From positions 4,208 to 68,207 of the forward strand of contig CAXIBI010000001.1 in the NCBI GenBank assembly GCA_964022305.1: a DNA stretch of 64,000 bases, read 5' to 3'. Position numbers and translations under genes: made by a program. Below the pieces are notes generated by a model. It had not been told where the DNA came from. It made no database searches and saw only the letters and a list, made by a program, of their open reading frames with translations. This DNA comes from an uncultured Hyphomicrobiales bacterium (GTDB lineage: Bacteria; Pseudomonadota; Alphaproteobacteria; Rhizobiales; HXMU1428-3). Shown here piece after piece: positions 5,635 to 55,262 of this stretch. Within the stretch, counting starts at the first letter, position 1; the number at the start of each line of letters is the position of its first letter.

Positions 5635-5644
5635 GAGTCTGTTT

Positions 5645-5755
5645 TCTCTCACGGCTATTCCTCGCTCCGCTCGGGCCTCCGAGAGGCGGCGCTAAGCGCC
5701 GGGCAGCTCGCGCTGCCATGTCCCATTGCCCGAAAAGGGCAATGCTCCTTCTTCA
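5645..5755 (+). repeat. Modular intergenic repeat, copy A (directly 3' of dnaJ)
   Basis: Left box TCTCTCACGGCTATT, central GGCGCTAAGCGCC hairpin, GCCATGTCC, hairpin cattgccc-gaaaa-gggcaatg, right box CTCCTTCTTC. The same layout recurs at 12419, 16311, 24350, 24606, 49345 and 54875. Confidence 0.85.
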
Positions 5756-5785
5756 TGCAGCAAGATTTTCACTTATATCTTTTTA

Positions 5786-6557: not shown

Positions 6558-7145
6558 ATGTCAGTTAAACTCTTATTTTTTGCAGGTAGTAAACGACAAG
6601 CTTCTTTGAATAAAAGATTGGCCAAAGCTGCATCTAATATGGCAGCTGAATTCGGTGCCGAAGTTACATTTATTGACCTCAAAGATTTTGAGATGCCTCT
6701 TTATTGCGGTGACCTTGAAGCAGAGACAGGTGTTCCTGAAGCTGCCCAACGTTTAGCTGAACTTGTACAATCTCATGATGGTGTTTTCATCGCTTCACCT
6801 GAATATAATTCTTCTCTCAGCCCCTTATTAAAAAACACACTTGATTGGGTCTCACGTCTGCGTTCTGATGAGACACCACCACGTACGCCTTGGCACAAAG
6901 CTCAAGTTTTTGCTATCGGTGCTACCAGCATGGGGCCTATGGGGGGATTGCGCGGTATTCAGCTATTATCAGCCCTTTTGATCAATGGCTACCAAGTCAA
7001 TGTCATTCCTCAAACTGTGGCTGTTGGCAAAGGTCATGAAGTATTGGGTGAAGATGGCTCCCTCTCTAATCCTCAATCAGAAGCGATGCTTAGCGGTGCT
7101 ATGAAAGCCTTTGTTGAAACTGCTTCAAAATATAAGAACTTTTAA
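6558..7145 (+). CDS. NADPH-dependent FMN reductase family oxidoreductase
   Basis: LLFFAGSKRQASLNKRLAK (the GSxRxxSxN signature) and SPEYNSSLSPLLKNTLDWVSR are typical of the flavodoxin-like FMN reductase fold. Confidence 0.85.
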   Translation: MSVKLLFFAGSKRQASLNKRLAKAASNMAAEFGAEVTFIDLKDFEMPLYCGDLEAETGVPEAAQRLAELVQSHDGVFIASPEYNSSLSPLLKNTLDWVSRLRSDETPPRTPWHKAQVFAIGATSMGPMGGLRGIQLLSALLINGYQVNVIPQTVAVGKGHEVLGEDGSLSNPQSEAMLSGAMKAFVETASKYKNF

Positions 7146-7160
7146 GAGATCAGAGCACTC

Positions 7161-7847
7161 ATGAATAACCGTTTAATTGTTGCCCTTGACTTTCCGACTG
7201 TAGATGAGGCGCGCACTTGTGTGCAGGAGATTGGCCCTGCATGCCGGTTTTATAAAATTGGCTTAGAGCTATTATTTGCCGGTGGGCAACAGCTTGTTAC
7301 AGAGTTGCTGCATAAAGGGCATCAGGTTTTTGTCGATGCCAAACTCCTGGATATTGGCGCTACCGTTGAAAAATCAACGCGCAACATAGCCAAACTTGGC
7401 GCTGATTTTTTAACTCTGCATGTCACTGACAGTAAAACGCTCAAAGCTGCCATTAAAGGGCGCGGTGATAGTTCGCTTAAACTCCTTGGTGTCACTGTTC
7501 TGACTAATCTTGAACAGACTGATTTGACCGAACAAGGCATTGAAGGCCGCACGCCTAAAGAGCTTGTGCTACACCGGGCGAAACTTGCTTTTGATGCAGG
7601 GTTAGATGGTGTGATCGCTTCAGCTCAAGAGGCGGCTGATATTCGCGAACTTGTTGGGCCTGACTTTTTGATCGTTACTCCAGGCATTCGCCCAAGCGGT
7701 GCAGAAGTTGGTGACCAGGCAAGAGTAACCACGCCAAAAGATGCCATAGGTTTTGGGGCCGATTATATTGTGGTTGGACGCCCCATTACGCAATCAGATG
7801 AGCCAAGAGAAGCGGCTCAAGCCATTCAGGATGAGATTGCTGGGTAA
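7161..7847 (+). CDS. pyrF: Orotidine 5'-phosphate decarboxylase
   Basis: LIVALDFP, YKIGLELLF, VFVDAKLLDIGATV (DxKxxDI) and IVVGRPIT motifs. Confidence 0.95.
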   Translation: MNNRLIVALDFPTVDEARTCVQEIGPACRFYKIGLELLFAGGQQLVTELLHKGHQVFVDAKLLDIGATVEKSTRNIAKLGADFLTLHVTDSKTLKAAIKGRGDSSLKLLGVTVLTNLEQTDLTEQGIEGRTPKELVLHRAKLAFDAGLDGVIASAQEAADIRELVGPDFLIVTPGIRPSGAEVGDQARVTTPKDAIGFGADYIVVGRPITQSDEPREAAQAIQDEIAG

Positions 7848-8038
7848 GGTGATGGCAATGTTACTCAACTTGCAAGAGAACTAAAACCTTTCTTCGTTTG
7901 ATAGCTCAGCCTTGTGCCAAAATCAGTTATGTTGACTTCACATTTTAAAAAAGAGCATAATCAAATTATGCCTCATATAATGAGAGCAGGGTCTTGAGCG
8001 TATCTATCTACTAATCAATAGTTTAGAGAGAAGTAAAT

Positions 8039-8446
8039 ATGAACGAAGAAAGAAATTATAAATTAATTGGAAGCATAACAACGATCCTGGGCCTTGTCGT
8101 GTTTTTCACTAGCTTATGGATTCGCAGTGTAGCGGCAAGCTCTCTTAATATCAATCATACATCTACTCATTCAATATTGTTTATTTTCCTATGCCTCATC
8201 ATATCTATTATTTGCTTTTTTATTGGCAAAAAATATGGAGATGTAATTTACAACACTGTAGCTGGTGGAGCTATTGTTCTTGCAATTTTGTTAGTTATTG
8301 CAGTTCGTATGATGGAAGGTGGTTTATTAAGCTCTACTCCTGATCTGATAATAATTGGACTCATGTTCTGTGGGGTTGTTGCAGTGGCATCTGGTCTAGC
8401 TGCTTTTGGGATTGTTAGCCATCAAAACGCAAATAAAATTGACTAA
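8039..8446 (+). CDS. Small hypothetical membrane protein (about 4 TM)
   Basis: 135-aa ORF with four hydrophobic helices, AGAGAAG upstream, and an AT-rich context. No recognisable family. Confidence 0.5.
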   Translation: MNEERNYKLIGSITTILGLVVFFTSLWIRSVAASSLNINHTSTHSILFIFLCLIISIICFFIGKKYGDVIYNTVAGGAIVLAILLVIAVRMMEGGLLSSTPDLIIIGLMFCGVVAVASGLAAFGIVSHQNANKID

Positions 8447-8557
8447 TAATCAATGTAACAACATATAGTAATATTTAGCTAAATGCATCTCTGATGAAAA
8501 AGGTTTGTTGCGGATCACAAGCAGAACAATAGCTTATCAAAATTTATTTTCTGAAAA

Positions 8558-9538
8558 CTATCTCTTTCTATACCATGGCAGTGGGTAATAATATATGAGT
8601 ATAGCAAGAGCAGCCAAAAGGCCTGTTGTATTGGCAACAGGGCCTTCCCAGCCTGATAACGCAGTTGCCCGTCCGGCGAATGTTGTTGTGCCTTTATAAA
8701 CCAACGTCCCACCTGATGTCTGAAGACCTGCCCCACTTTCCGATATACTATAAATTATCAATGCGATGATACTGAGAGAGACAAGCTGATATATTCCAAA
8801 TGAATGTATATATTTCGCTGAACGCTTCCATATAAAATAATGGAACCCCACAAATATGGATGCCATAAATGCTCCAAGTGTCAGACCGCGAAAAAGAACA
8901 TGAAGAACGATCCATTCATAGAAATAATCCCTCCATGGCTTTCCAGACATGAACTCATCACCCATCATTTTCATCAGGTAAAGCCAAACAATAAAACAAA
9001 TTGCAATCGCAATAATCTGAAAAACGCTCTTTTGCGAAAGATCTGAACCAATGTAATGCTTATTCTCTGGTTGTTTATACCCAAGAGCTTTTAAACGTTT
9101 CACTGCGGATTTTTGTACGTCTGGTGTTATTTCTTCTATAGCAATTTGTTGAAGTACTTGCTCATCATCAATAGCTTTTATTGCTAGTTTTTGTACATCA
9201 GGATCAGAATCATACTGAGCGATTTTATTTAATTTCGCACTGTCCGCTTTAATCAGCTTTCTGCATTTTTTAATTCCTATCGACGCTGTCAATATAAGAA
9301 ACAGAACGGAAAGAATACTAAGGCCAATGAAAACAGCGTACTCGCCTTCTTTTCCGATGTCGAAAGGCTCGAAAAAAGAGGGCATGTCTTCCCCGTTCCA
9401 AAAGCTAATGGGAAGATAGATTATCCATGAAAGCCAGTAATTAATCGGTTGAAGGCTACTAATCCAATAGCATAGACCAAGGGTAACTAAAAAAACAATG
9501 GATGCTGTAAGCCTTCTTAATTCCGGATCTTCATCCAT
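8558..9538 (-). CDS. Hypothetical polytopic membrane protein with a short HEAT-like repeat loop
   Basis: 326-aa ORF with several TM helices. The central soluble loop has a repeated DPDVQKLAIKAI / TPDVQKSAVKRL motif (HEAT/PBS-lyase-like). Confidence 0.6.
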   Translation of the reverse strand: MDEDPELRRLTASIVFLVTLGLCYWISSLQPINYWLSWIIYLPISFWNGEDMPSFFEPFDIGKEGEYAVFIGLSILSVLFLILTASIGIKKCRKLIKADSAKLNKIAQYDSDPDVQKLAIKAIDDEQVLQQIAIEEITPDVQKSAVKRLKALGYKQPENKHYIGSDLSQKSVFQIIAIAICFIVWLYLMKMMGDEFMSGKPWRDYFYEWIVLHVLFRGLTLGAFMASIFVGFHYFIWKRSAKYIHSFGIYQLVSLSIIALIIYSISESGAGLQTSGGTLVYKGTTTFAGRATALSGWEGPVANTTGLLAALAILIYYYPLPWYRKR

Positions 9539-9621
9539 AGCTCCTCCGATATAGAATATATAACTTTCAAACTAATATAGTTTACAGCTCATATTAGACA
9601 AAACCATTCGCGTTTAGAATT

Positions 9622-9650
9622 GCGCTTCAGTTGCCCACGAAAAACCGCGC
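9622..9650 (+). repeat. Degenerate palindromic unit (PU)
   Basis: gcgcttcagttgcccacgaaaaaccgcgc is a diverged version of GCGCTTCAGGTTGCCCAC-NN-GCAACCGCGC. Confidence 0.5.
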
Positions 9651-9652
9651 AC

Positions 9653-12160
9653 TTACCCTTTATCAGTACCGTCTTTTTCTGAATTGTCGTTGGTTGTGTC
9701 TGCGATGATTTCTTTTAGGTTCTCGCTTACATCTTCAGTTTTGTTTTCGGCTAGGTCCTTGTGGGTTGTTTCTTCTTGCATAGCCTGCTCGTCAGATTGT
9801 GCAGGTACACTATTTTCATTTGCACCTTGCAAGCTCTGCTTGATTGTTTGCAGGCGTTGCCAGATAGAGTTTTTCTCTTCGCCGCCAGACTTTAATTGTT
9901 CATCACCACGGCCAACTAACGGGACTGAAGGTGTCGTGTCTTTATCATCTAAGCTTTGTTCTTGCTGATTATCTAATTCAGTGGTTTCAGTGGCATGCTT
10001 AAGATCCATGCCGAATGACTTCTTTTGTGGACCGCTTTTCATAAATGTCTTGCGGGCCTCACCTTTATTGATAATGGCGCCTTTTTGAGTTTGGCCAAAC
10101 TGGTTGAGATCAAAACCTTTTTGGATATTTTGTAATTTTTCTTCCGCATTGTTTTTCCGTGGGAGTGCTTTTGGTTTTTTAACAGCCGGTTTGTTAAACT
10201 GATCCCAAAGATAAACCTGGCGTGCCAGATTTTGATAGAAGGTTTCTTCAATATGATAGGCAGAAGGATTATGTCGATCGAGCTTGATGTTGTCGCCAGC
10301 AATGGTCAGCACTTTGTTCACATATTGCTTTTCTTCACTTCTTAGATTTTTCATATCGATGACAGCCAAATAGCCTTGTTCTGGCGAGGGGCCGCTGATG
10401 GATCTAAAGAATATTTTTTTCGTTCTTATATCTTCTGGTTCATGGCCATAAATCTCAGTTGACATACCCAGCCCATATTTCATGACATCTGCCTGGCTGC
10501 CTGTGTTTTCATAAGACGCTGTTTTCGCGCCAATTAAACCTGCAATAAAGACAAGACTATCAATGGCAATCGCAAGCCCTAAGGCGAGATAAGCTAACCA
10601 GTTGCCATCATCAAAAGCATTGAGTGTCACGACAAAGTTTTTGGCTTTATCATCGCGGTTCAGGTCAATGCGGCTTAAGATATTGCGAAATGAGTTTGCA
10701 TCTTTTTCTGGCAAGCCTGAGCCTTGAATACAGCGCTGGCCAAGTTTGAGCAGACTGTCGATTTTGGTTGAGCGACGGCCTTTGCCGATGGTGCATTTTT
10801 TAGCCTGAGATAATTGAGCGGCTTGCAGAGTGAAAATCCTCGCCGCAACAGTGGCTGTGGCAGCACCAGGCTCACAAGAGATAGATCTAATCTCAGTGGC
10901 GATTTTAGGCACCTCAGTTAGGGCGTTATGAAGATTGGTACAATTTTTTTGGATATTTAAAAAGGTTGCTTTGCTTGGCTCTTGCCCGAACTGATCCCTT
11001 GCCGCATCTAAACTATCTATGCTTGCAGTCGCCGATAAATCTTGTGTTATATTTTCTGACTGGCGTTTGGTTTGCGCTTCAATAAATTGTTTTGCGACAG
11101 AGGCTTTGCCTTCAATTTTAGCAACTTCACCGTTGATCAGCTCCAGCTCCTGGTTAAGCTTGGCGACTTTTTCATCTAACTGCTCGAGGCGCGTTGCGGC
11201 TAAATCTTTTTGTGTGTTGATCACATCGCGCTCTGCATTGATACGGCGCTCTTCTTTTTTTATCGCTCTGAATTTAGGGCCTTCGCCTTCTCTGCCAGTT
11301 GAGCCAATGCCTTTGGCTTCTTTAGCAGCTTCAGCTAGCTTTTGATCAAGCAAGCGTTGTTTTTCTCGTAATTGCTGACGCAATTGGTCAACTTCAGCGC
11401 TAAGGCCTGGTCGGTCTGCATTAAGGCGATTGATGCCTTGCTCAATTTTTAATTGCTGGGCTTTTAAGGCTGCCTTTTGTCCTTTGGCTTGAGCTAAAGT
11501 TTCTTGATGGCGCGCTATTTCAGCTTGTTCGCCGCGCAATTTATTTAACAGTTGTTGCTCAACCAACTCAGGCGCTGATCGTGCGATTTTACCCATTTTA
11601 TCGAGGCGGTCATTATAATCTTTCCACCCGGCTGAATTGAACAAACCATCAATTGCTTCAAATTTGCGTTGCTCTACTCGTTTTTTAAGGTCAGTTAAGA
11701 CACCGCTCACCTGATTTTGAGCTCTGATTTCACCAGCGCGTTGGCGTTCTTCTTCTGAGAAGATTGAACTGAACAAACTGTCAAAAGAAAAGAAAACTGA
11801 AATTGCCATCGCAAAAAAGAATATGGCCCAGATCATCCAGACTTTAAAAAATGAAAGCGGCCCCATTACAGCGTGAACAAGCAAGTTTCTTTGTTCACCG
11901 CCGTCTTTTTTATTTTTCGTCGGGACTAAAGTTTCACCTATCATCCATGCGCTAACAAGCATGATCCCTTGAACACCAAATGTGATGAGAAAACAAAGCA
12001 CAGGAGAGCGGGTGAAGTTTGTCATGCCTTCAAATGTCGTCCAGCCAGAGGCCAGTGAAAGCGCTAGGCTGGTTAGCCCCATGAGGAATAGCCGCTCATT
12101 CGTCAACGCTGTTCGCATCAAGCCACCAAAAACCATTGCTGGTGCGCGCAATAATGACAT
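9653..12160 (-). CDS. Orphan 835-aa polytopic membrane protein with a long coiled coil (third gene of the orphan trio)
   Basis: About 4 N-terminal TM helices (aa ~25-125). Heptad-rich, charged segment at aa ~135-385 (EIARHQETLAQAKGQKAALKAQQLKIEQ...). A further TM helix, WLAYLALGLAIAIDSLVFIAGLIGA (aa ~540). Acidic low-complexity tail. I spotted no Walker A or other catalytic motif. Confidence 0.75.
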   Translation of the reverse strand: MSLLRAPAMVFGGLMRTALTNERLFLMGLTSLALSLASGWTTFEGMTNFTRSPVLCFLITFGVQGIMLVSAWMIGETLVPTKNKKDGGEQRNLLVHAVMGPLSFFKVWMIWAIFFFAMAISVFFSFDSLFSSIFSEEERQRAGEIRAQNQVSGVLTDLKKRVEQRKFEAIDGLFNSAGWKDYNDRLDKMGKIARSAPELVEQQLLNKLRGEQAEIARHQETLAQAKGQKAALKAQQLKIEQGINRLNADRPGLSAEVDQLRQQLREKQRLLDQKLAEAAKEAKGIGSTGREGEGPKFRAIKKEERRINAERDVINTQKDLAATRLEQLDEKVAKLNQELELINGEVAKIEGKASVAKQFIEAQTKRQSENITQDLSATASIDSLDAARDQFGQEPSKATFLNIQKNCTNLHNALTEVPKIATEIRSISCEPGAATATVAARIFTLQAAQLSQAKKCTIGKGRRSTKIDSLLKLGQRCIQGSGLPEKDANSFRNILSRIDLNRDDKAKNFVVTLNAFDDGNWLAYLALGLAIAIDSLVFIAGLIGAKTASYENTGSQADVMKYGLGMSTEIYGHEPEDIRTKKIFFRSISGPSPEQGYLAVIDMKNLRSEEKQYVNKVLTIAGDNIKLDRHNPSAYHIEETFYQNLARQVYLWDQFNKPAVKKPKALPRKNNAEEKLQNIQKGFDLNQFGQTQKGAIINKGEARKTFMKSGPQKKSFGMDLKHATETTELDNQQEQSLDDKDTTPSVPLVGRGDEQLKSGGEEKNSIWQRLQTIKQSLQGANENSVPAQSDEQAMQEETTHKDLAENKTEDVSENLKEIIADTTNDNSEKDGTDKG

Positions 12161-12381
12161 TTAGATTAAACCCCCGCTTGGTACTAAAAATTTTGCAACT
12201 TACAATAATTTCACGATAAAAATCGTTTCACAATCACATCCATTTTTAAGCTCGGATGACTATAGCAGCTTTCATGGGCCTATTGAAATGAAAGCTCATC
12301 TTATCTAGCAGAAAATGAGGGCATTATCTTTACAGAAAAGGCAAGGGTATGACGTGAATGAAGATTATTCACTCTTTTTTA

Positions 12382-12534
12382 GTGCTCCTTCAGTTGCCCA
12401 CCAGCAACCGTCGCTTTATCTCTCACGGCTATTCTGCCGCTGAAGCGGCAGGCCTGCGAGGCGCGGCGCTAAGCGCCGGGCAGCTGGCGCTGCCATGTCC
12501 TACTGCCCTGAAAAAGGGCAGTACTCCTTCTTCG
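12382..12534 (+). repeat. PU plus modular intergenic repeat, copy B (between trio genes, antisense to them)
   Basis: gtgctccttcagttgcccaccagcaaccg is followed by TCTCTCACGGCTATT, hairpin ctgccgc-tgaa-gcggcag, GGCGCTAAGCGCC, GCCATGTCC, hairpin tactgccct-gaaaa-agggcagta and CTCCTTCTTCG. Confidence 0.85.
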
Positions 12535-12579
12535 TCTAGTCAGAATTTAAATCTATTCTCACCAACTATTTGAACTTAA

Positions 12580-15500
12580 CTAGAAAGTTGAACGTTTTAG
12601 GCCCGTGCTGACGCGGAAGGTTTTTTGGCCGATTGAGAGTTCAGTTTCTTCTGCTTTTAAGGTCTTGAGTGACCACTTTTGTTGCTCGGGCCCACTATCA
12701 CTGCCTTCATTTGCTTGCTGGCCCGGATGATCGTCAACTGGTAAATTAATCAGTGTTTGATAACAAAGATCGAGATAAGATTGCCATTCAGCCCCTGCTA
12801 TGGCCCATTGCTCGGTTGAAGCTCTGTCCAAATCATCTAGATAAGTTTGGCAATAAACGGCTCTTGGATCTTCGTTCAGTAAGCTTCCAAATCCAGGTAA
12901 AGTTTCAATGAGTTGAACTGATGAGCTTTGTCGTGGCAACAGGCCATTTGAGTTGGCTTGTTCAACGACGATAAGCTTGCCTTTTTCAGCTACTGAGATC
13001 ATGTCAGTTTCACCCTCTAGACTATCTGACAAGGGCACCAATATCAGGTTTGATGTTTGCTTGGTGTGTGGAGCTGTATCTTGATAGTGAAATAATTCAA
13101 GCGCGCCTAAAGAGGTTGCTGATTTGGCGGCTTTGTAATTTTTAGGCAGTGGTAATAAACGAAACTCCAAAGTTTTCGCCGTGCTTTCAAGTAATTTTTT
13201 CAAAGGACCAAAAAGACATGTCCCACCAGAAGCTGATAGCACTCTCTCAAATTTCTCATTTGTTTTTGGAAAGGCCTGCTCGATAGAGCGGGGCAGGAGC
13301 TCAGCAACAAAAGCTAAGTAAGTTGAGAGCGGTCCAACTTTTTGTGCCAACAGCTCACTATTTACTCTTAATTCGATGTGCCAGGTTTTTCCCTCATTAG
13401 AGCTGATACAAACCAGTTGCTCACCGCGCAATCCATGCCACAAACTTATAGGCTCGTCAGCTGGCTCAATTGAAGAAGGTAGGGTGAGAGGATAATCATC
13501 CTCTCTTTCAGACCTTCCTAAAACGATGTGCAAGTCGTTGCCTGCTTGGTCTTTTGCCGTCTCGGCTGCGTAAAGGGCGCGGCGTAAGTCATTTAAAAAT
13601 TGGTTTTGTCTATAGGCTGTTTCTGTCTCTTGGCTTTCAGCGTCTTTAATTTCTTCAGTTGAAGTTGGAAACTCTGACTGTTTGATAATCTGCGCCCCAG
13701 CGCTCAAGGCTGTTTCGATTGTCTGAGCTATTTCTTTTGACAATGCGAGCTCTAAAGCTCTCCCCCCGAAGGGTAGTTCAATTAAACCATGAACTTGCTC
13801 AAGAAGAGCATTGGTTTCCCCAACCCAGCCCGTTTGAGCGCAATATGCTGCATGGCTCGCGCCAATATCTATATGTATTTGCTGTACTTTTCTGGCTCTT
13901 GCAGGTTGATCCTGAATGGCCATGGTTTTTAGTGCATGATAACTCGACGCTAAGATTTCGTCGACCAAGAGCACATTATCTTTCGCTTGATCTGGCCCTT
14001 TAAGCCCGAGGAGTTCGGCCATGGGGCCCATTTCTAGAAAAGACCCTTGCTCAAATTTCGTGAGTGTATTGGCACCTGCTAATTGATAGCGCCTTTTAGC
14101 TGCTTGGCTTAGATTGCTTGAATGTGTGAGGGCTAGAACTGACCCTCTATTCACCTGGCTTGATTTTTGTTTTTGCTCACCTTCCGCAAGGGATGGTGTC
14201 AGGCTCAATTTGCTACCGAAATAATTATAGAGCTCATCTAAAACATCAGACATCAACCGCTCTGAATTTAAAGAGGCGGTTAAACCAGTTTTAAAATGCT
14301 CTGTCTCTAAAGGAGCTGTTTCTCCTTTTTGTGCAATCTCATTTGTTTTCACACGGGCCGCTGTTAGATATGTGGGCGGCGCTTTTTTTATTTCTTTTAA
14401 ATCTTTGGAATACAAGCCGTGAGACGCTGGTTCTTCTATATTATTTGTTTGTGAGAAAATTCGTTTTAAATTCTTCTTTTCTCCAGCTTGTTTTTTTCCT
14501 TTAGGTGGCAGGGCAATGTCATAGGTTCGCTGCATCGCTGTTAAACGTTCATCTAACGAGGATGTCTTCCAAGATGATTTACTGAATGAAACTTTTAAAG
14601 GGTTTGTTTTAAGAGGCCAATAGTCATCATCGAGTTCTGTTTCTTTTGGTTCAGTATCTAGGCGCCCAGAGAGAGACAATTTTGAAGGTATAAAGGCTTT
14701 ATCCAAATAGTGGTCAGGTGATATTTCTCCTAATGCAATATTTTGAAATTCTTTTTTCTCTTCAGTATTTTGTGTTTCCTTTGATTGGAAAGCGGCCATT
14801 GCCAGGGACTTGGAGCCGATATCAATTGAGATAAACTGAGAGTAAGTTTTCTCGACTTGTTTAATCGAGATTTTAAAATTTTCAGTTTTTTGTTTATCTG
14901 GCGAGAAACATTTGAGTTTAAACTCACCTTTTTGAGCTTTTTGTTTTTTATTGAGTGCGATCTGGTTGAGTAATATCAACTGATGCTGCTGAGAGCTTAA
15001 TTCTGTGACTTCTGGTTTTACATTATAAAATTCTGCATCTTTTGATGACGGCGTGATGGCAACGTTTACCGGTCCATCTGATAAACCAAGCCCATAATAT
15101 TGCAGTGAGAGAAACTGACTGGCAGGACATTCAATTTCTGGCCCCGTTACTAAAAGTTCACCAAAGATGTTGTCATCTGATTGCTCTGTTGTGTCTCTGT
15201 TTACAGGCAGACATAGTGGAGCTGACATTCCCGCGCCGTCTTGGAGTATCAACCAGTCATTCTCATCAAATTGAATTGAGAACTGACATTCAACCGAAAT
15301 ATTGCCGCCTGGTTCAGGAATGATGAGTTCTAACAGTGCATGCAATGGTTGGTTATTATTAGCGGCTCTGATTGAGGCCATCTCTAGCCATAAAGGATCA
15401 TTTATCGGCGCAGCAATGCTTAGGGTCCAAGGGCCTCGTTTTTCTTTCGGTGCAGATGGTAATAAGGGACCAAATGCTTTTGCTCCTTTAGGGAAATTTT

Positions 15501-16230
15501 TATTTTGCGCATGAGGGAACGCTTTATAAATTTCTTCATAAGCGTGTTCATCTTCAATGAATTCGCCAGGGAGTTCTGTTGAGCCCTCATAAATTCGCAA
15601 TTTTTCAATCAGGCTATTTCGCAATGGTTGCCAGGTATCTGATAGTTTGATTGTAGAGAGCAGCAAGCGTTTATCTGAGCGCGGATCTAAGGGCCCTAAA
15701 TTTGATTTGACCATTGCGCTTGCTATATCAATACGTCCTTGCGCCCCACATGCAATTGGGTAGAGTAAGTGCTGTTCTTTTGAAGGTTGGACAGGCTCGA
15801 GCCCTAGTAAACATTTTGCTTTGGGGCCATAATAAAGCTTTACCTCTAAATTCATCACTCCTTGATCTTCTCTGATGCAACTTTCATCGTTTTCATCAAG
15901 TTCAGTGATTTCAACTTCCAAGTAGAAAGTCTCTTTTAGAGAAAAGGTTTCTATTTGCTCTCTTAATAGCGCTTGGTTGGTATAAAGGCTTGCTTCATTT
16001 GCCTGGTTGTTATCATCTCTTGTGATTTCGCGCCCTGCAGCTGCATGCTGCGTGAACCAGGTCAGCAAATTTAAAGGGACTTTATATGGCTTTTCATTGC
16101 GAGCTGGACGCAATCTGATTTCTTGGATGCGCAAGGCTACGCTTCTTGCATGTTCAAAAGAAACAGAGGCCAGAAATTCATGCTCGCCAGGACTGGCTAG
16201 ATTAATATGCGCTGATCGTTTTTTTACCAT
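12580..16230 (-). CDS. Orphan 1216-aa protein with actin/Hsp70/FtsA-PilM-fold ATPase signatures (middle gene of the trio)
   Basis: Three motifs occur in the canonical order. Phosphate-1-like FISIDIGSKSLAMAAF (aa 465-481, nt 14806-14832). Phosphate-2-like IHIDIGASHAAY (aa 785-796, nt 13843-13878), followed by ELPFGGRALELAL. Adenosine-like VLSASGGTCLFGPL (aa 997-1010, nt 13201-13242). The ~460-aa N-terminal region has no recognisable motif. Confidence 0.75.
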   Translation of the reverse strand: MVKKRSAHINLASPGEHEFLASVSFEHARSVALRIQEIRLRPARNEKPYKVPLNLLTWFTQHAAAGREITRDDNNQANEASLYTNQALLREQIETFSLKETFYLEVEITELDENDESCIREDQGVMNLEVKLYYGPKAKCLLGLEPVQPSKEQHLLYPIACGAQGRIDIASAMVKSNLGPLDPRSDKRLLLSTIKLSDTWQPLRNSLIEKLRIYEGSTELPGEFIEDEHAYEEIYKAFPHAQNKNFPKGAKAFGPLLPSAPKEKRGPWTLSIAAPINDPLWLEMASIRAANNNQPLHALLELIIPEPGGNISVECQFSIQFDENDWLILQDGAGMSAPLCLPVNRDTTEQSDDNIFGELLVTGPEIECPASQFLSLQYYGLGLSDGPVNVAITPSSKDAEFYNVKPEVTELSSQQHQLILLNQIALNKKQKAQKGEFKLKCFSPDKQKTENFKISIKQVEKTYSQFISIDIGSKSLAMAAFQSKETQNTEEKKEFQNIALGEISPDHYLDKAFIPSKLSLSGRLDTEPKETELDDDYWPLKTNPLKVSFSKSSWKTSSLDERLTAMQRTYDIALPPKGKKQAGEKKNLKRIFSQTNNIEEPASHGLYSKDLKEIKKAPPTYLTAARVKTNEIAQKGETAPLETEHFKTGLTASLNSERLMSDVLDELYNYFGSKLSLTPSLAEGEQKQKSSQVNRGSVLALTHSSNLSQAAKRRYQLAGANTLTKFEQGSFLEMGPMAELLGLKGPDQAKDNVLLVDEILASSYHALKTMAIQDQPARARKVQQIHIDIGASHAAYCAQTGWVGETNALLEQVHGLIELPFGGRALELALSKEIAQTIETALSAGAQIIKQSEFPTSTEEIKDAESQETETAYRQNQFLNDLRRALYAAETAKDQAGNDLHIVLGRSEREDDYPLTLPSSIEPADEPISLWHGLRGEQLVCISSNEGKTWHIELRVNSELLAQKVGPLSTYLAFVAELLPRSIEQAFPKTNEKFERVLSASGGTCLFGPLKKLLESTAKTLEFRLLPLPKNYKAAKSATSLGALELFHYQDTAPHTKQTSNLILVPLSDSLEGETDMISVAEKGKLIVVEQANSNGLLPRQSSSVQLIETLPGFGSLLNEDPRAVYCQTYLDDLDRASTEQWAIAGAEWQSYLDLCYQTLINLPVDDHPGQQANEGSDSGPEQQKWSLKTLKAEETELSIGQKTFRVSTGLKRSTF

Positions 16231-16310
16231 AAGCCCTCAAATAATCGATATTTGAGGCAATATACAGACTTAAATTATGTTTATGGAAAGTTTTTTGTTG
16301 GGTTTTGTTT

Positions 16311-16430
16311 TCTCTCACGGCTATTTCTAGCGCTGAAGCGCTAGAGCCTACGAGGTGCGGCGTAACACGCCGGGCTACGCTAACGCTTCGCCATGTCCCT
16401 CAGTCCGAAGTGGACTGAGCTCCTTCTTCG
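16311..16430 (+). repeat. Modular intergenic repeat, copy C (between trio genes, antisense to them)
   Basis: TCTCTCACGGCTATT, hairpin ctagcgc-tgaa-gcgctag, ggcgt-aac-acgcc, GCCATGTCC, hairpin ctcagtcc-gaag-tggactgag, CTCCTTCTTCG. Confidence 0.85.
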
Positions 16431-16473
16431 TATTTCAATGTCAGTGTTAAGGGTGGTTATTTATTTCTTGGCC

Positions 16474-18423
16474 TTATCTTGAAAGAATCAGTCGGGCGTG
16501 TTGGGCGGAGGCGTGGAAGCGTTCTGCTGCATCCGAAAGAATCGTCATCATGCGAAGGCGGAGCATCATTTCATCTGTTAATGGCGCTTTCGCAGACTCT
16601 AATTCAAAATTAGCTTCTTCTTGAGAGGGAAGCGTTTTACCTAACCGTGTGACATGCTCTAGTACGACTTCTTTACGGCCTGTTCTTGCCAGATGATCTG
16701 TCATTGATTGAAGGATGGTAATCACTTGCTCTGCTGGTAAAAGTGAAGGATCTAATATGATCGCTTCAAAACTTTCAGCCAAAGCGCGGCTGTTAATAAG
16801 CGCATGGATCCATTGGTGAGAAACCACTGATGGCGGCAAAAGACGACGCGCCAAAGCTGCTGCATCCTGGATATATCCCTCTCCAGAAAGAGCAAAAATT
16901 GTAAAGCTGATATTTAAGCGCTGTGTAAAGGCCCAATCACCCGTCTCTAAAATACAAGCCACCATGTCAGAGACTTGCTCATACTCAGACAATGCTACGA
17001 GTTGCTCTGGTGTGAGATAAGAAAGATTTGAAACATATTGACGCAAACCATCAGCGGCACCTTCGATAATTCTTGAACGATATTCAAGGAATGGCTCTGA
17101 TGTTGGTAAGCGGCCTGCCAAACAAAGCAAATCTTCCATTTGGCTTAAGAACTGAATATCCCCGCTATCGAACTGCTCATCTCTAATGGCGCAGCCAAGG
17201 CTTAATGAGAGGTCAAAAATTTCTGATTTGAAATTTTCTTTAACTGTCTCTAGCAATTGCTCATAAATATGAGGGGCGCTGTCAAAATCTGAAAAGAGGG
17301 TGTAGAGCCCAGCTATATGAGGCGTTGTGTCATCACCTCGTAGCAATGCCTCAAGAGCTAAAAGACGTGGTTGATCTGTTGCGCTTTCTGGTAGAAGGGA
17401 TGAGGCTTCAACTCTCATATTGATGCCAATTTCGTTTAGAACCTGACCTAGAGAGGCGCTGGTTTCCCGCGCCAGACCACTTAATTCTTCAAACAGGCTA
17501 TCTTCTTCGAATAGTTCATCATTATCTTCAAAATCATCATATTCTGAGAGTTCGAGCTCTGGCGCGTAGATGTTTTTCAAACGACCTGCAAGCAATCCTC
17601 TTACTTCCTGGCAAGTGCTCTCTAAAGTCGCCCCTAATGGTAGGGCTGCCACAGGCTTGGTAAATGCTCCTTGTGAGATTTCACGATCATCAAAATATTG
17701 TAGTGTGCAAATTGGTTGGCGATGCTGAAAACCATATGAAAAAGAAACAGTGTGACGAAGAGCTGATGGAAGTAATTTAAATACGTAGGCAAGTGAAGCT
17801 AGAAATTCTTGCGTTGAGCTAAAGCTTTCTTTGCCGAATTGACCTGGATAACCAGAGGCAAGAGCCCCTAAAATTAGCCCCACACCTAACGGCAATTCAG
17901 CTAAGCTTAGATCTTCAGTCTGGTTTGGCTCTAACTTGGCTGTGTTTACAACTTTGCAACCACTTAAACCTGGCTCAAGATATTTTTCAGTTTCAAAAGG
18001 GGCTTTTGAGAGATTTAAAATTAGCTCAGGAGCATGGCGCTCCCAAAGACGCGCATTAATGACAAAACTTGAGGCGAACAAGTTCTCTTGCTTAATTTTC
18101 GCGGATGTATCACCAATGATTTTTACTTGGCTTGCTGCGACCCAGTTATGATTTGGATTAGCATTTGGCTCATAAAAGGGACGAGTGGCTCTTACGCATA
18201 AACCACCGTTTTCTCTCGCATTTTTTGATAATAGTGAGCCTACATCATGCGCTCCGACCATGCCATCAAGTTCACAAAGTGGACGTGCATCATCTGGAAA
18301 ACCATTACTTACATTTTGGCAAGCCATTGTTTGATCTGGGTGTGGGTTCTTTGTTTCTTGGCAAAGAAGGGTCCCAATTGAGAAAACATGAGCGTCGACA
18401 CTTGTTGGAAATTGAAGCAGCAT
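16474..18423 (-). CDS. Orphan 649-aa soluble protein (first gene of the trio)
   Basis: Long uninterrupted ORF on the same strand as its neighbours. Acidic linker ELELSEYDDFEDNDELFEEDSLFEEL around aa 290-320, and a helical-looking C-terminal half. No TM segment, P-loop or family motif recognised. Confidence 0.7.
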   Translation of the reverse strand: MLLQFPTSVDAHVFSIGTLLCQETKNPHPDQTMACQNVSNGFPDDARPLCELDGMVGAHDVGSLLSKNARENGGLCVRATRPFYEPNANPNHNWVAASQVKIIGDTSAKIKQENLFASSFVINARLWERHAPELILNLSKAPFETEKYLEPGLSGCKVVNTAKLEPNQTEDLSLAELPLGVGLILGALASGYPGQFGKESFSSTQEFLASLAYVFKLLPSALRHTVSFSYGFQHRQPICTLQYFDDREISQGAFTKPVAALPLGATLESTCQEVRGLLAGRLKNIYAPELELSEYDDFEDNDELFEEDSLFEELSGLARETSASLGQVLNEIGINMRVEASSLLPESATDQPRLLALEALLRGDDTTPHIAGLYTLFSDFDSAPHIYEQLLETVKENFKSEIFDLSLSLGCAIRDEQFDSGDIQFLSQMEDLLCLAGRLPTSEPFLEYRSRIIEGAADGLRQYVSNLSYLTPEQLVALSEYEQVSDMVACILETGDWAFTQRLNISFTIFALSGEGYIQDAAALARRLLPPSVVSHQWIHALINSRALAESFEAIILDPSLLPAEQVITILQSMTDHLARTGRKEVVLEHVTRLGKTLPSQEEANFELESAKAPLTDEMMLRLRMMTILSDAAERFHASAQHARLILSR

Positions 18424-18562
18424 AATACTATCCGAAACTATATAAAACCAATCTCAACATTGCCTGCCCGATGTTAATATGGAGTTACCAAGTTTGTAAG
18501 ATAGCTAAAATTATTCAAAAATTTTGTTTTATATTTCGTCTTATTTTAAAGGTTTTTTAAGC

Positions 18563-19990
18563 CTATGTTTTTGCCAACTGTTTCGCGCTTATGGTTTTTG
18601 GCTTGAATAATTTCTTTTCGATGTAACCAATAATCTCTTGGGCTAAATCTTTTTCATTAACTTGTTGTATACCTTTAAGACCAGGTGAAGAATTCACCTC
18701 TAATAACAAAGGCCCTTTGTTTGAGCGCAAGATATCAACGCCAGCAAGGCTAAGACCAAAAGCTTTGGCGGCTTTCACGGCCATCTGGCGCTCTTCTTTG
18801 GTGATTTTCACTTTTTCAGCAGAACCCCCTTGATGAATATTGGCACGAAACTCACCAGGCTCAGCTGAGCGCTGCATTGTTGCAATCACTTTAGACCCCA
18901 GAACCAAGCATCTGATGTCAGACCCTTCAGATTCGCCAATAAATTCTTGGACGAGAAAATCCGCATCAATTCCTCTAAAGGCATCAATCACCGACTCAGC
19001 TGCTTTTTTTGTCTCGGCTAAAACCACACCCTTGCCTTGTGAGCTTTTTAATAATTTCACCACCAAAGGCGCACCATTGACCAGTTTGATTAAATCTTCT
19101 GTGTTTTTAGGTGAGCTTGCAAAAGCTGTGATTGGCATTGGCAAACCATGGCGCGCCATAACCTGATGCGCTAATAACTTATCTCGTGATCGATAAATGG
19201 AATCAGCTGAATTTAAACAAAGAGCACCTGTCATATCAAATTGGCGTACGATTGAGGTACCATAGGATGTGATTGGAGCGCCAATTCTTGGAATGATGGC
19301 GTCAAACCTTGGCAATTGCTTGCCATTATAATGAAGCCCAGCTGTGAGCGAGTTAATGTTCATGTAGCACGATGTGGTCTCAATTGGCTCTATGACATGG
19401 TCATTTTTTTCAGCCGCCTCAATGATTTGCTTATTTGAATAATTGCCAGGATCCATTGTGAGGAGACCGATGCGCAATGACCGTGCAACAGGACTTTGTG
19501 ATTTTACCTTTTTATATATAGAGAATGAAAGCTCATCTAATAAATATTCAGCGCTTGGCTCAACAACCAGTTGTGCAGTGTCCATAGCTTCACGGCCTAT
19601 GAGCATGCGATGCTGCAAATTTTCTCTGTTTGTTAGTGAAACTTCAATCGGCCAACTATTATCACCGATTGCCAGATCCGTTTTGATTATGGTTCTGAAT
19701 TCACTTTCACCATTTGAGCTTGTGATATAACGGCGATCAATAATGGGGGCCGTGCAGTAGATGATGAGCTCTTCATTGCCATCTATGGGTTTAACGCCAA
19801 AACGTACTTTGGGTCTCTCTATTGGCCCAAATGTTTCAATATCTATAGCATGTAATGCAGATGTTTTAGCCCCTGTATCTATTTTGGCATGTATGGCTTC
19901 TAAGCCTAATTTGGGTAATCTTACCCATTCGCGCCAACCAACAGAAATAGATGATAGGGGGGAAAGATCTGGTGTATTTTCCATATCCAT
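18563..19990 (-). CDS. rimK: Fusion of a retropepsin-like (RimB/DUF785-type) domain and a RimK-family ATP-grasp alpha-L-glutamate ligase
   Basis: N-terminus: WREWVRLPKLGL..IHAKIDTGAKTSALHA (a DTGA aspartic-protease-like motif). C-terminus matches the RimK core: FRANIHQGGSAEKV...AGVDILRSNKGPLLLEVNSSPGLKGI. Confidence 0.85.
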   Translation of the reverse strand: MDMENTPDLSPLSSISVGWREWVRLPKLGLEAIHAKIDTGAKTSALHAIDIETFGPIERPKVRFGVKPIDGNEELIIYCTAPIIDRRYITSSNGESEFRTIIKTDLAIGDNSWPIEVSLTNRENLQHRMLIGREAMDTAQLVVEPSAEYLLDELSFSIYKKVKSQSPVARSLRIGLLTMDPGNYSNKQIIEAAEKNDHVIEPIETTSCYMNINSLTAGLHYNGKQLPRFDAIIPRIGAPITSYGTSIVRQFDMTGALCLNSADSIYRSRDKLLAHQVMARHGLPMPITAFASSPKNTEDLIKLVNGAPLVVKLLKSSQGKGVVLAETKKAAESVIDAFRGIDADFLVQEFIGESEGSDIRCLVLGSKVIATMQRSAEPGEFRANIHQGGSAEKVKITKEERQMAVKAAKAFGLSLAGVDILRSNKGPLLLEVNSSPGLKGIQQVNEKDLAQEIIGYIEKKLFKPKTISAKQLAKT

Positions 19991-20026
19991 CTAGAGCCTA
20001 TAAATGAAAAAATTATGTATCAGGAA

Positions 20027-20554
20027 TTAATCGCTTTTACTTGTGCATCTATCAAATGCAGATTCATATTCCCATACTTCATTTTCTGTTTTGCAGGCAA
20101 GTATAACTGTTTTGAAGTCAGGGTCACTTTCAAGATAGTGCAAAATTTCTTGCATGGCGATAAAAGCGGCTCTTTGCGGGGGAAATCCTTTTTCGCCTGT
20201 TGAAATCGTTGGGAAGGCAATGTTTGAAATTTTGAATGTTTTGCCGATTTCAAAGCAATTTTTATAACAATGCCTTAGGTAGATATCTTCATCAGCCTCA
20301 CCGCCGCCCCAGGCTGGACCAGCTGTATGGATGACAAAATTGGCCGCTAAATCATAGCCTCTTGTTATGCGGGCTTCACCAACTGGACAGGGAGCAACGT
20401 GTTTGCACTCTTCAGCTAATTTTGGCCCTGCGAGTGCATGGAGAGTTTCTTCCTCAGTGGTTGCGGCTAAGAGGGAGGGATGCGCGCTATTGACAATCGC
20501 ATCACACTTCAGGCTTGTGATGTCGATTTCTCTTATTTCTATTCTAGATGGCAT
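20027..20554 (-). CDS. Macro domain protein (YmdB/MacroD-like) with a degenerate catalytic loop 1
   Basis: CDAIVNSAHPSLL, IHTAGPAWGGG and IAFPTISTGEKGFP match the macro fold. The usual NAAN...GGGGVDGAIH is replaced by NSAH...AATTEEETLH. Confidence 0.8.
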   Translation of the reverse strand: MPSRIEIREIDITSLKCDAIVNSAHPSLLAATTEEETLHALAGPKLAEECKHVAPCPVGEARITRGYDLAANFVIHTAGPAWGGGEADEDIYLRHCYKNCFEIGKTFKISNIAFPTISTGEKGFPPQRAAFIAMQEILHYLESDPDFKTVILACKTENEVWEYESAFDRCTSKSD

Positions 20555-20712: not shown

Positions 20713-20734
20713 TGTTATATGGAATAATGTAACA
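20713..20734. promoter_or_regulatory. Candidate Zur box in the zur / macro-rimK divergent region
   Basis: Inverted repeat TGTTATAT-ggaata-ATGTAACA (7 of 8 arm positions pair), ending 18 bp upstream of the zur start. The arms resemble the TGTTAT/ATAACA Zur half-sites, but the spacing differs from the E. coli box. Confidence 0.35.
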
Positions 20735-24340: not shown

Positions 24341-24349
24341 CGGTTTTTA

Positions 24350-24465
24350 TCTCTCACGGCTATTCCATGAGCTGAAGCACATGGGCCTCCGAGGGGCGGC
24401 GCAACGCGCCGGGCTTCACTCTCGTTTCGCCATGTCCTGACGCCGAAATGGCGTCACTCCTTCTA
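24350..24465 (+). repeat. Modular intergenic repeat, copy D (directly 3' of ispG)
   Basis: TCTCTCACGGCTATT, hairpin ccatgagc-tgaa-gcacatgg, ggcgc-aac-gcgcc, GCCATGTCC, hairpin tgacgcc-gaaa-tggcgtca, CTCCTTCT. Confidence 0.85.
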
Positions 24466-24501
24466 CAGTATTCATGTAATGTATATAGTCAATTGTACTA
24501 A

Positions 24502-24597: not shown

Positions 24598-24605
24598 GGT
24601 TTTTA

Positions 24606-24783
24606 TCTCTCACGGCTATTTCAAACGCTATCGCGTTTGAGCCTGCGAGGGCGCGGTGCTAAGCACCGGACGCCATTGGCGTCATGTCCTTCAGCCCAAA
24701 GAAGGGCTGAACTCCTTCTTCATACAGTTCCTTTTGCGTTACTCCATGTCCTACTGCTTGAGAGAAGCAGTGCTCCTTCTTCG
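24606..24783 (+). repeat. Modular intergenic repeat, copy E (with a duplicated 3' module)
   Basis: TCTCTCACGGCTATT, hairpin caaacgc-tatc-gcgtttg, ggtgc-taa-gcacc, CATGTCC, hairpin ttcagccc-aaagaa-gggctgaa, CTCCTTCTTC. A second CCATGTCC, hairpin (tactgcttgagagaagcagtg) and CTCCTTCTTCG follow. Confidence 0.85.
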
Positions 24784-48316: not shown

Positions 48317-49342
48317 ATGGGCTATAATGTTGCCATCGTCGGTGCCACAGGAAATGTGGGCCAGGAAATGCTGACCATCTTAGAAGAACGCCACTTTCCA
48401 GTAGATAAAGTATTTGCAATTGCCTCTCGTCGCTCGCTTGGACGTGAGGTGAGTTTTGGCGACCAAACGCTAAAATGTGAAGATCTCGAACAATTTGATT
48501 TCTCACAATGTGACTTTGCCTTGCTTTCAGCTGGTGGCACGATTTCTAAAGAGTGGGCCCCTAAAATCGCGGCTACTGGTTGTGTTGTGATCGATAATTC
48601 CTCAGCGTGGCGCTATGACATTGATGTGCCTCTTGTTGTGCCTGAAGTGAACGCAGAAGATCTAGATGGCTTTGCAAAGAAAAACATTATTGCCAACCCG
48701 AATTGCTCAACAGCACAACTGGTCGTGGCCCTTAAACCTCTTCATGATGTTGCCAAAATTAAACGCGTTGTTATATCAACATATCAATCTGTTTCTGGCG
48801 GCGGTAAAGAAGCTATGGATGAACTTTGGCTCCAGACCAAAGGCATTTTTGTAAATGATGAGCCAACCCCAACCAAATTCACAAAGCAAATTGCTTTTAA
48901 TGTTATTCCTCATATTGATGTGTTCATGGAAGATGGATACACCAAAGAAGAATGGAAATTGATGGTTGAGACCAAGAAAATTCTTGATCCGAAAATTAAG
49001 CTTTCAGCAACAGCTGTTCGTGTCCCTGTTTTTGTTGGCCATTCTGAAGCTGTGAATATTGAATTTGAAGAGCAGATCACGCCGGATGAAGCGCGTGACA
49101 TCTTAAGAGAAGCGCCAGGCATTATGGTTATCGATAAAAGAGAAGATGGCGGCTATATCTCACCTGTTGAATGTGTTGGTGATTTTGCAACCTTTGTTTC
49201 TCGTATTCGTGAGGATGCCACGGTTGAAAATGGTCTTTCACTTTGGGTGGTTTCTGACAACCTTCGTAAAGGTGCTGCTCTAAATACCGTGCAAATTGCT
49301 GAGTCAATGATTAACCGCAAGTTAGTTACTAAAGCGGCTTAA
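48317..49342 (+). CDS. asd: Aspartate-semialdehyde dehydrogenase
   Basis: MGYNVAIVGATGNVGQEML, NPNCSTAQLV (active-site Cys) and SGGGKEAMDEL. Start at ATG 48317; the track start is 48305. Confidence 0.95.
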   Translation: MGYNVAIVGATGNVGQEMLTILEERHFPVDKVFAIASRRSLGREVSFGDQTLKCEDLEQFDFSQCDFALLSAGGTISKEWAPKIAATGCVVIDNSSAWRYDIDVPLVVPEVNAEDLDGFAKKNIIANPNCSTAQLVVALKPLHDVAKIKRVVISTYQSVSGGGKEAMDELWLQTKGIFVNDEPTPTKFTKQIAFNVIPHIDVFMEDGYTKEEWKLMVETKKILDPKIKLSATAVRVPVFVGHSEAVNIEFEEQITPDEARDILREAPGIMVIDKREDGGYISPVECVGDFATFVSRIREDATVENGLSLWVVSDNLRKGAALNTVQIAESMINRKLVTKAA

Positions 49343-49344
49343 TA

Positions 49345-49534: not shown

Positions 49535-49574
49535 TACCGTACGTCCTAAGTTTTTTCCTTTTACAATTCCAATG

Positions 49575-55028: not shown

Positions 55029-55262
55029 TATATAAACTTCCATATATATTTCTACAAGTAACCGTACTTCCGCTTTGCCAAATAGCTCACCCCCTAGGTT
55101 AAACTGAGTTCCTTCACCATATGATCGTTTTTGTTTTAACTGCCAACAAAAGACTAATGTTTTAAAGTGTCATCTTTTAAAAAATATAGGTGACCCACTT
55201 TGTCCATTTTAGTATTACAAAAAGAGTGATCACTTTGCATAAGAAAAAAGAGGGACCTTTTC

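Follow-up and report, generated by a model that had tools for sequence, protein, structure and literature searches.

Hsp70-type ATPases are among the best-understood molecular machines, and to our knowledge almost all known bacterial Hsp70s (DnaK, HscA, HscC) work with J-proteins. A different arrangement is found in CnuD/Cnu(C)D of Type III CoCoNuT, where an Hsp70-like nucleotide-binding domain (NBD) and substrate-binding domain (SBD) are combined with HEAT-like repeats, an Ig-like beta-sandwich and coiled coils (PMC11090510). On the DUF4407 membrane proteins the literature offers passing mentions only and nothing mechanistic, and their function is not known. Here we analyse three consecutive genes, called A, B and C, in a stretch of 64,000 nucleotides (the window) from an uncultured Hyphomicrobiales bacterium (contig CAXIBI010000001.1, positions 4,208 to 68,207). 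Protein B is a divergent ATPase of the Hsp70 superfamily, predicted from model and sequence to be catalytically competent; the firm core is the gene pair A-B; and protein C is best described, judging from its sequence, as a divergent inner-membrane relative of DUF4407. We propose, with a probability of about 0.5, that the three proteins make up a native, vertically inherited machine of one marine Hyphomicrobiales clade, in which an Hsp70-like ATPase would work with partners at the membrane.

All three genes are on the minus strand and start with ATG: A at 16474..18423 (649 aa), B at 12580..16230 (1216 aa) and C at 9653..12160 (835 aa). The gaps between them measure 243 bp (A-B) and 419 bp (B-C). 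A first annotation made from the letters of the window (the sequence-only reading) had listed three large minus-strand open reading frames (ORFs) with exactly these coordinates and lengths. Each has full-length homologues in other genomes, and we therefore consider A, B and C as real genes and not chance ORFs. Their description as orphans also held, since none of the three could be assigned to a characterised family. Searches of Pfam, NCBIfam, PADLOC, PHROGs and PDB sequences returned nothing for A and B, and nothing significant for C, for which DUF4407 appeared below threshold only. PDB sequence and profile searches gave chance-level matches for all three proteins, and the library profile searches, proposed at the outset as a check, produced no full-length match of the three to a characterised system. 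B had no match among 72,556 plasmids (tblastn), and a motif scan agreed with the initial remark that Walker A is absent from A, B and C.

The structure of B was predicted with AlphaFold2 (AF2) on a 60%-identical orthologue, P0007, using an 18-sequence alignment (predicted template modelling score, pTM, 0.78). The N-terminal part (aa 1-~460; 14851..16230, minus strand) lacks a signal peptide and is predicted to be a tandem series of Ig-like beta-sandwiches. In the model, residues 1-~460 of P0007 are all-beta, with a per-residue confidence (pLDDT) mostly of 70-90, and Foldseek matched this half only to a pilin fusion (CfaB), to ciliary Ig-like proteins and to phage Ig/BACON/PKD proteins. Residues 1-100 are the best-conserved part of B (68-74% identity). 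The C-terminal part (aa ~461-1216; 12580..14850, minus strand) comprises a divergent Hsp70-type NBD and then a beta-rich C-terminal domain, which is possibly SBD-like. A long, poorly ordered insert interrupts the NBD at aa ~500-690, and sequence change in B is concentrated in this region (aa 450-700). The modelled C-terminal part adopts a two-lobed, actin-like ATPase fold of the ASKHA type that is closest to Hsp70 NBDs: compared with the PDB by Foldseek, it found Sse1/Hsp110, BiP, DnaK and Hsc70 (E 4.6e-12 to 1e-9), with a TM-score of ~0.6 between the B model and NBD-only Hsp70 chains. Viral Hsp70s lead the BFVD structure search.

The sequence-only reading had recognised actin/Hsp70 signatures in the right order behind the N-terminal ~460 aa of B, which motifs, model and Foldseek now confirm. 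The phosphate-1, connect-1, phosphate-2 and adenosine motifs follow each other in order, with the catalytic Asp, Lys, Glu and Asp. Six residues (D470, G472, S473, G790, G1002 and G1003) are invariant in 18 of 18 B homologues, while at least 90% of these also share K589, E758 and D788. When B was aligned by hhalign with the DnaK encoded in the same window, the score was weak (E 0.015), yet the signature blocks aligned in order. K589 is paired with K70 (NLKR/AIKR), E758 with E171 (L(I/V)xExxAAxY) and D788 with D194 (HIDIGASH); further block pairs are LTHxxxLS with ITVPAYF, and LPxGG with FLGGED. D470, in the phosphate-1 block DIGS, corresponds to D8 of DnaK by motif order. Given the weak hhalign score, we base the assignment on motif order and fold. 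In distant B homologues the motifs are close to canonical (DIGAGTFD and LVPESLAAA). The HSP70 family of Pfam (PF00012) was matched by none of the 18 B homologues, even at E up to 5, and B is therefore not a member of the Hsp70 family proper. The same relaxed scan gave scattered noise, with no HSP70, SrfB, actin, MreB or FtsA, and the distant B homologues reached Pfam HSP70 only marginally (E 0.009, below the cut-off).

Protein A consists of a novel N-terminal domain (aa ~1-265), an acidic linker and a C-terminal half (aa ~340-649) predicted to be an alpha-solenoid. An acidic linker and a helical C-terminal half in a soluble protein were anticipated by the sequence-only reading, and all were recovered: the linker covers aa 288-316 (14 D/E, 0 K/R), and the only hydrophobic peak (aa 172-190, Kyte-Doolittle value 1.73) is a conserved Gly-rich segment that we do not take as a transmembrane (TM) helix. 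The AF2 model shows a confident helical repeat over aa ~340-649. Foldseek returned generic TPR/ARM-like matches only (E>0.04), and since in addition the N-terminus was left unmodelled, no fold is assigned to A; no relatives were detected in profile libraries or the PDB either. The family is strikingly conserved, nearly all homologues being 649-650 aa long, with 54-98% identity (21 clusters). Mean column identity is 78%, rising to 85-96% over aa 451-600, and in places the conservation of A exceeds that of DnaJ.

For C, a membrane bundle, a charged helical stretch of ~250 aa, a later TM helix and an acidic tail had been described from the start; this layout stands, with the qualification that the N-terminal TM helices number three or four. 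Hydrophobic segments are found at ~24-40, 54-72, 98-133 (either a single long helix or a pair of short ones) and 525-543. The N-terminal bundle (aa ~24-134) is polar and strongly conserved, with invariant SGWTT, TFGxQG and SVFFSFDSLF. It is followed by the charged coiled-coil stretch (136-385), with a central invariant GxTGxxGxGP motif, and by a domain with four invariant cysteines (C407, C429, C456 and C477). After the TM helix at 525-543 come a clade-conserved domain (~546-650) and a poorly conserved tail (650-835), net acidic. The match to DUF4407 (PF14362), in the coiled-coil region, reaches E 9e-5 and 22.3 bits for a gathering cut-off of 31.3 bits. Several C orthologues carry a precomputed PF14362 assignment, and the DUF4407 layout (N-terminal TM helices, a long coiled coil, a further TM helix) is found in C. 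The positive-inside rule and the spaced cysteines suggest that the coiled coil is periplasmic and the C-terminus cytoplasmic.

The gene for C also occurs near zur on its own. In a Hyphomicrobium-type genome (L006:9093-13312), an orthologue of C of ~1100 aa directly adjoins zur, and in another (L005:7707-13381) a thiolase gene stands between the two. This zur-C junction of Hyphomicrobium is the place taken by Macro-RimK-A-B in the clade of the window, Macro and RimK being two genes described below. It is conceivable that C, with its four invariant cysteines, is tied to zinc homeostasis.

A and B are extremely rare, C much less so. Among 5.8 billion protein clusters, A is represented by 21 and B by 19, and an exhaustive B profile search of 1.84 billion representatives yielded only 50 matches. 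The C family has more than 300 clusters, mostly of ~1100 aa, in Hyphomicrobium, Filomicrobium and Methyloligellaceae. For comparison we used the 12 other GTDB species representatives in which A was found, all of them metagenome-assembled genomes labelled Hyphomicrobiales, Methyloligella, Rhodomicrobium or Hyphomicrobiaceae. Wherever the contig allows, B then C directly follow A in all 12; co-occurrence and order across genomes were a check that the sequence-only reading had suggested. An orthologue is also carried by a strain record, 4NK60-0047b (locus-tag prefix NBRC116602). In one of the loci (L018, CALNZE010000079), A (10001-11948) and C (15807-18309) are each split into two overlapping ORFs; either the assembly contains frameshift errors or the module is decaying into pseudogenes in this lineage.

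The conservation of order extends far beyond the three genes. The series ispG-znuB-znuC-zur / Macro-RimK-A-B-C / pyrF-FMNred-dnaJ-dnaK, a neighbourhood of ~25 kb, is collinear in 12 of 12 genomes. We conclude that the module is a vertically inherited core feature and not an island. Composition agrees, as A, B and C have a GC content of 0.43-0.44 and a third-position GC content (GC3) of 0.34-0.41, matching their neighbours and the window (0.432). The view of the three genes as a block of their own thus survives in part: they are orphan and adjacent, but they do not form an island, and the firm unit is A plus B only.

Rates of divergence were compared using three relatives at increasing distance, L004, L001 and L003. 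Identity to the window protein is 88% and 75% for A (L004 and L001; L003 not available), 65%, 49% and 36% for B (L004, L001 and L003, as below), and 84%, 66% and 65% for C. Corresponding values are 86%, 77% and 65% for pyrF, 96%, 83% and 83% for DnaJ, and 89% and 74% for RimK, again with L003 not available. A and C evolve at housekeeping-like rates, and B evolves markedly faster. As core genes with housekeeping rates in the clade, they likely matter for the cell biology of this little-studied group of marine bacteria and not for phage conflict.

Evidence independent of this synteny comes from outside the clade. Weak matches to B (E 1e-19 to 1e-3) have lengths of 1100-1300 aa and align with its ATPase region, and they occur in two types of context. 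The first (L020, L021/L022, L024 and L025, the last from Neomegalonema sp.) comprises GC-rich loci of distant Alphaproteobacteria. A gene encoding 626-750 aa lies there 10-124 bp upstream of the B-like gene, on the same strand, and a profile of these four upstream proteins aligned with the N-terminal 260 aa of A (hhalign 96.5%, E 9e-10). The upstream proteins are thus homologous to the N-terminus of A, and A-B is a conserved gene pair across distant Alphaproteobacteria.

The second context is a six-gene cassette that had not been described before, found in L019, L023 (10001-23437), L028, L029 and the contig of P0181. The B-like gene comes first and is followed by genes for proteins of 260-400 aa, ~500 aa, ~965 aa and 1100-1300 aa (469 aa in L019), and finally by a gene for a membrane protein. 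The ~965-aa protein has a C-terminal domain resembling the transpeptidase of penicillin-binding proteins (PBP), and transpeptidase and DUF4407 domains are the only Pfam assignments in the cassette. In L023, where the cassette adjoins an integrase, the last gene is a true homologue of C (hhalign 98.9%, E 4e-17), the alignment covering the TM motifs, the coiled coil and GxTGxxGxGP; with 33.3 bits, this protein passes the 31.3-bit DUF4407 cut-off. Genes 2-5 were considered as hidden homologues of A or C and rejected (hhalign probability at most 1.1%). We regard C as an older gene and as a probable but unproven partner of A-B.

Both gaps of the module contain a copy of a GC-rich intergenic repeat of ~125 nt, predicted to fold into four hairpins and oriented as the genes are. 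The copy in the A-B gap lies at 16306..16435 (minus strand; 139 bits with covariance model R1) and that in the B-C gap at 12414..12539 (minus strand, 130 bits with the same model). Five others were found in the window with the covariance model, at 5640-5760, 24345-24472, 24601-24727, 49340-49539 and 54909-55033, and all seven full copies are on the minus strand whatever the orientation of the neighbouring genes. Although only five copies were compared, compensatory double changes occur at 15 of 36 base pairs, and sequence is conserved in the single-stranded stretches GAAGAAGGAG, GGACATGGC and AATAGCCGTGAGAGA. The repeat has no Rfam entry; it may be an element of the REP/RIME kind or else a multicopy RNA not yet described. 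There are 22 further matches in the related loci L003, L004, L007, L008, L011 and L014, many of them in A-B and B-C gaps; L004, L007, L008 and L011 have one or two copies in the B-C gap. In L007 and L018 the A-B gap is 64-66 bp and holds no full copy, and the covariance model found none in more distant clade members or in Hyphomicrobium. The 243-bp and 419-bp gaps have thus been inflated by a proliferating repeat, and by themselves are no argument against co-transcription. A scan found no minus-strand intrinsic terminator in either gap, the promoter/terminator scan of the module did not rise above shuffled expectation, and no inverted repeats were found in the regulatory gaps.

In the machine that we propose, B would be the engine, a cytoplasmic giant whose C-terminal ~750 aa form the ATPase and whose N-terminal ~460 aa form an Ig-like rod, and it would cycle between ATP and ADP states as Hsp70 does. 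A would be the dedicated partner of B and, by analogy with the ARM-repeat exchange factors that serve canonical eukaryotic Hsp70s, may act through its alpha-solenoid as an adaptor or as a regulator of the nucleotide-exchange type. The A-B complex would then act at the inner membrane on or through C, a probable membrane platform or client, and the module would remodel or assemble a protein or envelope structure. Its role would be one of lineage-specific housekeeping, not of phage defence or toxin delivery. A membrane-anchored, ATP-driven assembly had been suggested in the sequence-only reading; this is still the most plausible view.

Several observations weigh against this proposal, and the structural statements on the proteins are much firmer than the overall working model. 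That B hydrolyses ATP, and that it touches A and C, is what we infer. The phosphate-2 loop of B reads DIGASH and not DxGGGT, so that its catalytic rate is uncertain, and the N-terminal half of the A model is unusable, AF2 having left ~170 aa unmodelled and given mostly low confidence up to ~340. If the coiled coil of C is periplasmic, only its loops and C-terminal part could meet A and B. The A-B-C order within the clade is no evidence of coupling, because unrelated neighbours are equally syntenic. Outside it, L023 is the only distant cassette with a verified C homologue, the last cassette gene of L029 encoding a different TM protein with no detectable homology to C, and no C-like gene accompanies the four distant A-B pairs within the sequence covered, which is short for several loci. 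In Hyphomicrobium (L005, L006), orthologues of C stand alone by zur, with no A, B, Macro or RimK. Finally, the B-C gap is 227-616 bp across genomes, and since it is nowhere below 227 bp, C may be transcribed separately.

A broader claim can be made from the same data, which we put forward as tentative and somewhat doubtful. A and B, with C as their partner at the membrane, would represent a new class of Hsp70-superfamily machine, restricted to Alphaproteobacteria, in which an obligate alpha-solenoid cofactor replaces J-protein and GrpE. The class would exist in two forms, a core apparatus of cell biology in a single marine Hyphomicrobiales clade and, elsewhere, a component of a mobile six-gene cassette with a PBP-like protein.

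The objections that concern C feed the strongest alternative, according to which only A-B is a functional unit, and C is an unrelated, older Hyphomicrobiaceae membrane protein by zur, beside which A-B (with Macro-RimK) landed. The much larger C family (more than 300 clusters, compared with ~20 each for A and B), the Hyphomicrobium genomes with C beside zur, the distant A-B pairs with no C nearby in the sequence covered, and a B-C gap that stays wide where the A-B gap can shrink to 64 bp would all be expected under this alternative. Promoter and terminator evidence points neither way on the separateness of C. What counts against it is L023: a B-like gene and a true C homologue meet there in an unrelated cassette, which is unlikely by chance for two such rare families. 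The unbroken A-B-C order in the 12 related genomes is a further, weak argument, given the overall collinearity. We consider a C unrelated to A-B unlikely, while keeping it as the explanation to be taken most seriously after our own.

Improbable, in our opinion, is that a system for conflict or phage defence settled permanently among the core genes, with B as an Hsp70-like sensor and the DUF4407 protein as effector, e.g. by membrane disruption in abortive infection. It draws on the mobile or defence-like surroundings of distant relatives, namely the integrase of L023 and the TIR_2, BrnT and DUF433/DUF5615 toxin-antitoxin genes of L021, and on weak matches of two distant B-like proteins to the PADLOC candidate PDC-M61B (E 5.7e-5 and 3e-3). 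B also evolves faster than its neighbours (65/49/36%, against 86/77/65% for pyrF), and Hsp70-like domains do occur in CoCoNuT restriction systems (PMC11090510). On the other side, the module has a fixed chromosomal place, vertical inheritance and native composition in 12 of 12 related genomes, presence/absence variation was never seen within the clade, and A and C are conserved like housekeeping genes. The module contains no nuclease, protease, TIR or other effector domain, and no defence genes were seen next to it. PADLOC gave no significant match in the window (C matched LmuB at E 0.064, a coiled-coil match) and PHROGs none; held against the known or candidate systems of PADLOC-DB 2.0, the module has neither a significant profile match nor an island-like, variable context.

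Two last alternatives are very improbable. The first makes B an actin-like filament former of the ParM/MamK/FtsA type, anchored to the membrane via C. Its attraction is that B belongs to the ASKHA superfamily and has a membrane coiled-coil protein as partner, and that budding or prosthecate bacteria, whose cell biology is unusual, are among the relatives of these organisms. However, the top Foldseek matches of B in the PDB are all Hsp70/Hsp110, with no actin, ParM, MreB or FtsA among them, B has Hsp70-specific motifs (the lysine equivalent to K70 and a NEPTAAA-like connect motif), and the marginal Pfam matches of its distant homologues are to HSP70, not to actin or MreB. The second, a remote toxin/virulence operon of the SrfABC type, was an analogy of the sequence-only reading, which took SrfB to have an actin-like fold; it shares gross layout only (three large consecutive genes, a ~1000-aa middle protein), and profile searches and domain layouts leave it unsupported: A, B, C and 8 distant B-like proteins have no SrfA, SrfB or SrfC match in Pfam/NCBIfam (at E up to 5 across 18 B homologues; SrfB is Pfam PF07520), SrfA is reported to combine a kinase-like domain, a TM segment and a lipocalin-like domain (bioRxiv 10.64898/2026.09.18.752743), none of which is found in A, C has TM segments and a coiled coil with no P-loop and no SrfC match, and the hosts are free-living marine Alphaproteobacteria in which the genes are core, not horizontally acquired.

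The module lies in a block of 12.9 kb between pyrF (7161-7847) and zur (which starts at 20752), correctly delimited by the sequence-only reading. Three further features of the block had gone unnamed there, namely a gene with a Macro domain, a fusion of RimB with RimK, and a TM ORF that is not conserved. The Macro-domain gene (O-acetyl-ADP-ribose deacetylase-like, 20027-20554, minus strand) and the RimB-RimK fusion gene (18563-19990, minus strand, directly upstream of A) were identified by Pfam and NCBIfam matches. RimK, a ribosomal protein S6 glutamate ligase, here carries a fused N-terminal RimB-like retropepsin domain, and its gene is directly downstream of the Macro-domain gene. This pair is collinear with A-B-C in every related genome and absent from the zur-C junction of Hyphomicrobium; we treated it as context and did not assign it to the module. 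The flanks are pyrF, FMN reductase, dnaJ and dnaK on one side, and zur-znuCB-ispG on the other. Between C and pyrF there are two multi-TM ORFs, one of 326 aa (8558-9538, minus strand) and one of 135 aa (8039-8446, plus strand), neither with a significant family match (for the 135-aa ORF, a chance-level NCBIfam match at E 0.006). They have no counterpart in related loci, and are the sole variable spot of an otherwise collinear region.

An imperfect palindrome, TGTTATATGGAATAATGTAACA, is found at window positions 20713-20734, ~20 bp upstream of the start of zur. It sits in the 197 bp that separate zur from the divergently oriented Macro-RimK-A-B-C series. If the palindrome is a Zur box, as it may be, zinc might regulate the co-oriented genes. 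Of the Rfam families, only the cobalamin riboswitch (RF00174, 56763-56991, plus strand, 96 bits) reached its gathering threshold in the window.

What makes the locus worth pursuing is that two independent gene arrangements link an Hsp70-type protein, B, to a DUF4407 membrane protein. Should A, B and C act together, they would give a first functional handle on DUF4407 and a new example of the re-use of the Hsp70 engine; if the new class is true, the ATPase cycle of an Hsp70-type protein would be coupled in a new way to the envelope or inner membrane. With an orthologue in a named strain, 4NK60-0047b, experiments may be possible.

Among the known systems, SrfABC (Salmonella, Xenorhabdus) resembles our locus in having three large genes in a row, the middle one (~1000 aa) being the largest. 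The differences are that there is no profile match, no SrfA layout in A and no P-loop in C, and that ecology and inheritance are not the same. We found nothing mechanistic in the literature on SrfB/SrfC with Hsp70. The likeness to PDC-M61B lies in the distant B-like proteins, that of L023 matching at the phosphate-2 motif and that of L021 at the phosphate-1 motif. The match covers only ~80 aa, B of the window has none, and no other PDC-M61 component was found. As the distant B-like proteins match PDC-M61B at Hsp70 motifs, PDC-M61B is probably Hsp70-like as well. With DUF4407, C shares the succession of TM, coiled coil and TM, but at roughly double the usual length it carries in addition a Cys4 domain, a domain at the C-terminal side and an acidic tail.

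The comparison with Hsp70/Hsp110 (DnaK, BiP, Sse1) is closer. B keeps the equivalents of D8, K70, E171 and D194 and the adenosine GG, and a beta-rich domain follows its NBD where Hsp70 has the substrate-binding domain. The differences are a sequence identity of ~10% with no Pfam HSP70 match, the phosphate-2 loop DIGASH, and the ~460-aa Ig-like array and the disordered lobe I insert of ~190 aa, both without counterpart. No dedicated J-protein or GrpE gene stands beside B, the dnaK-dnaJ genes of the window being separate housekeeping genes, and the partner is A. The B family has thus kept the Hsp70 catalytic core but added an Ig rod and a neighbouring novel, highly conserved helical-repeat protein.

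With CnuD the likeness is one of domain composition only: in both cases a divergent Hsp70-like ATPase is associated, outside the classical chaperone system, with helical-repeat, Ig-like and coiled-coil modules. The locus lacks the McrBC components that define the CoCoNuT systems: no McrB-like NxD GTPase (CnuB), McrC/DUF2357 (CnuC) or HEPN RNase was detected in the genes scanned (6558-20554) or in related loci, and no cold-shock domain in or near the module (Pfam/NCBIfam). Unlike in CnuD, two further proteins provide these modules here, A the helical repeats and the membrane protein C the coiled coil, and the locus is part of the core genome, not of a defence island. At the level of fold B belongs to the Hsp70 superfamily, A and B are undescribed as families, and in composition CnuD is the nearest described analogue of the module.

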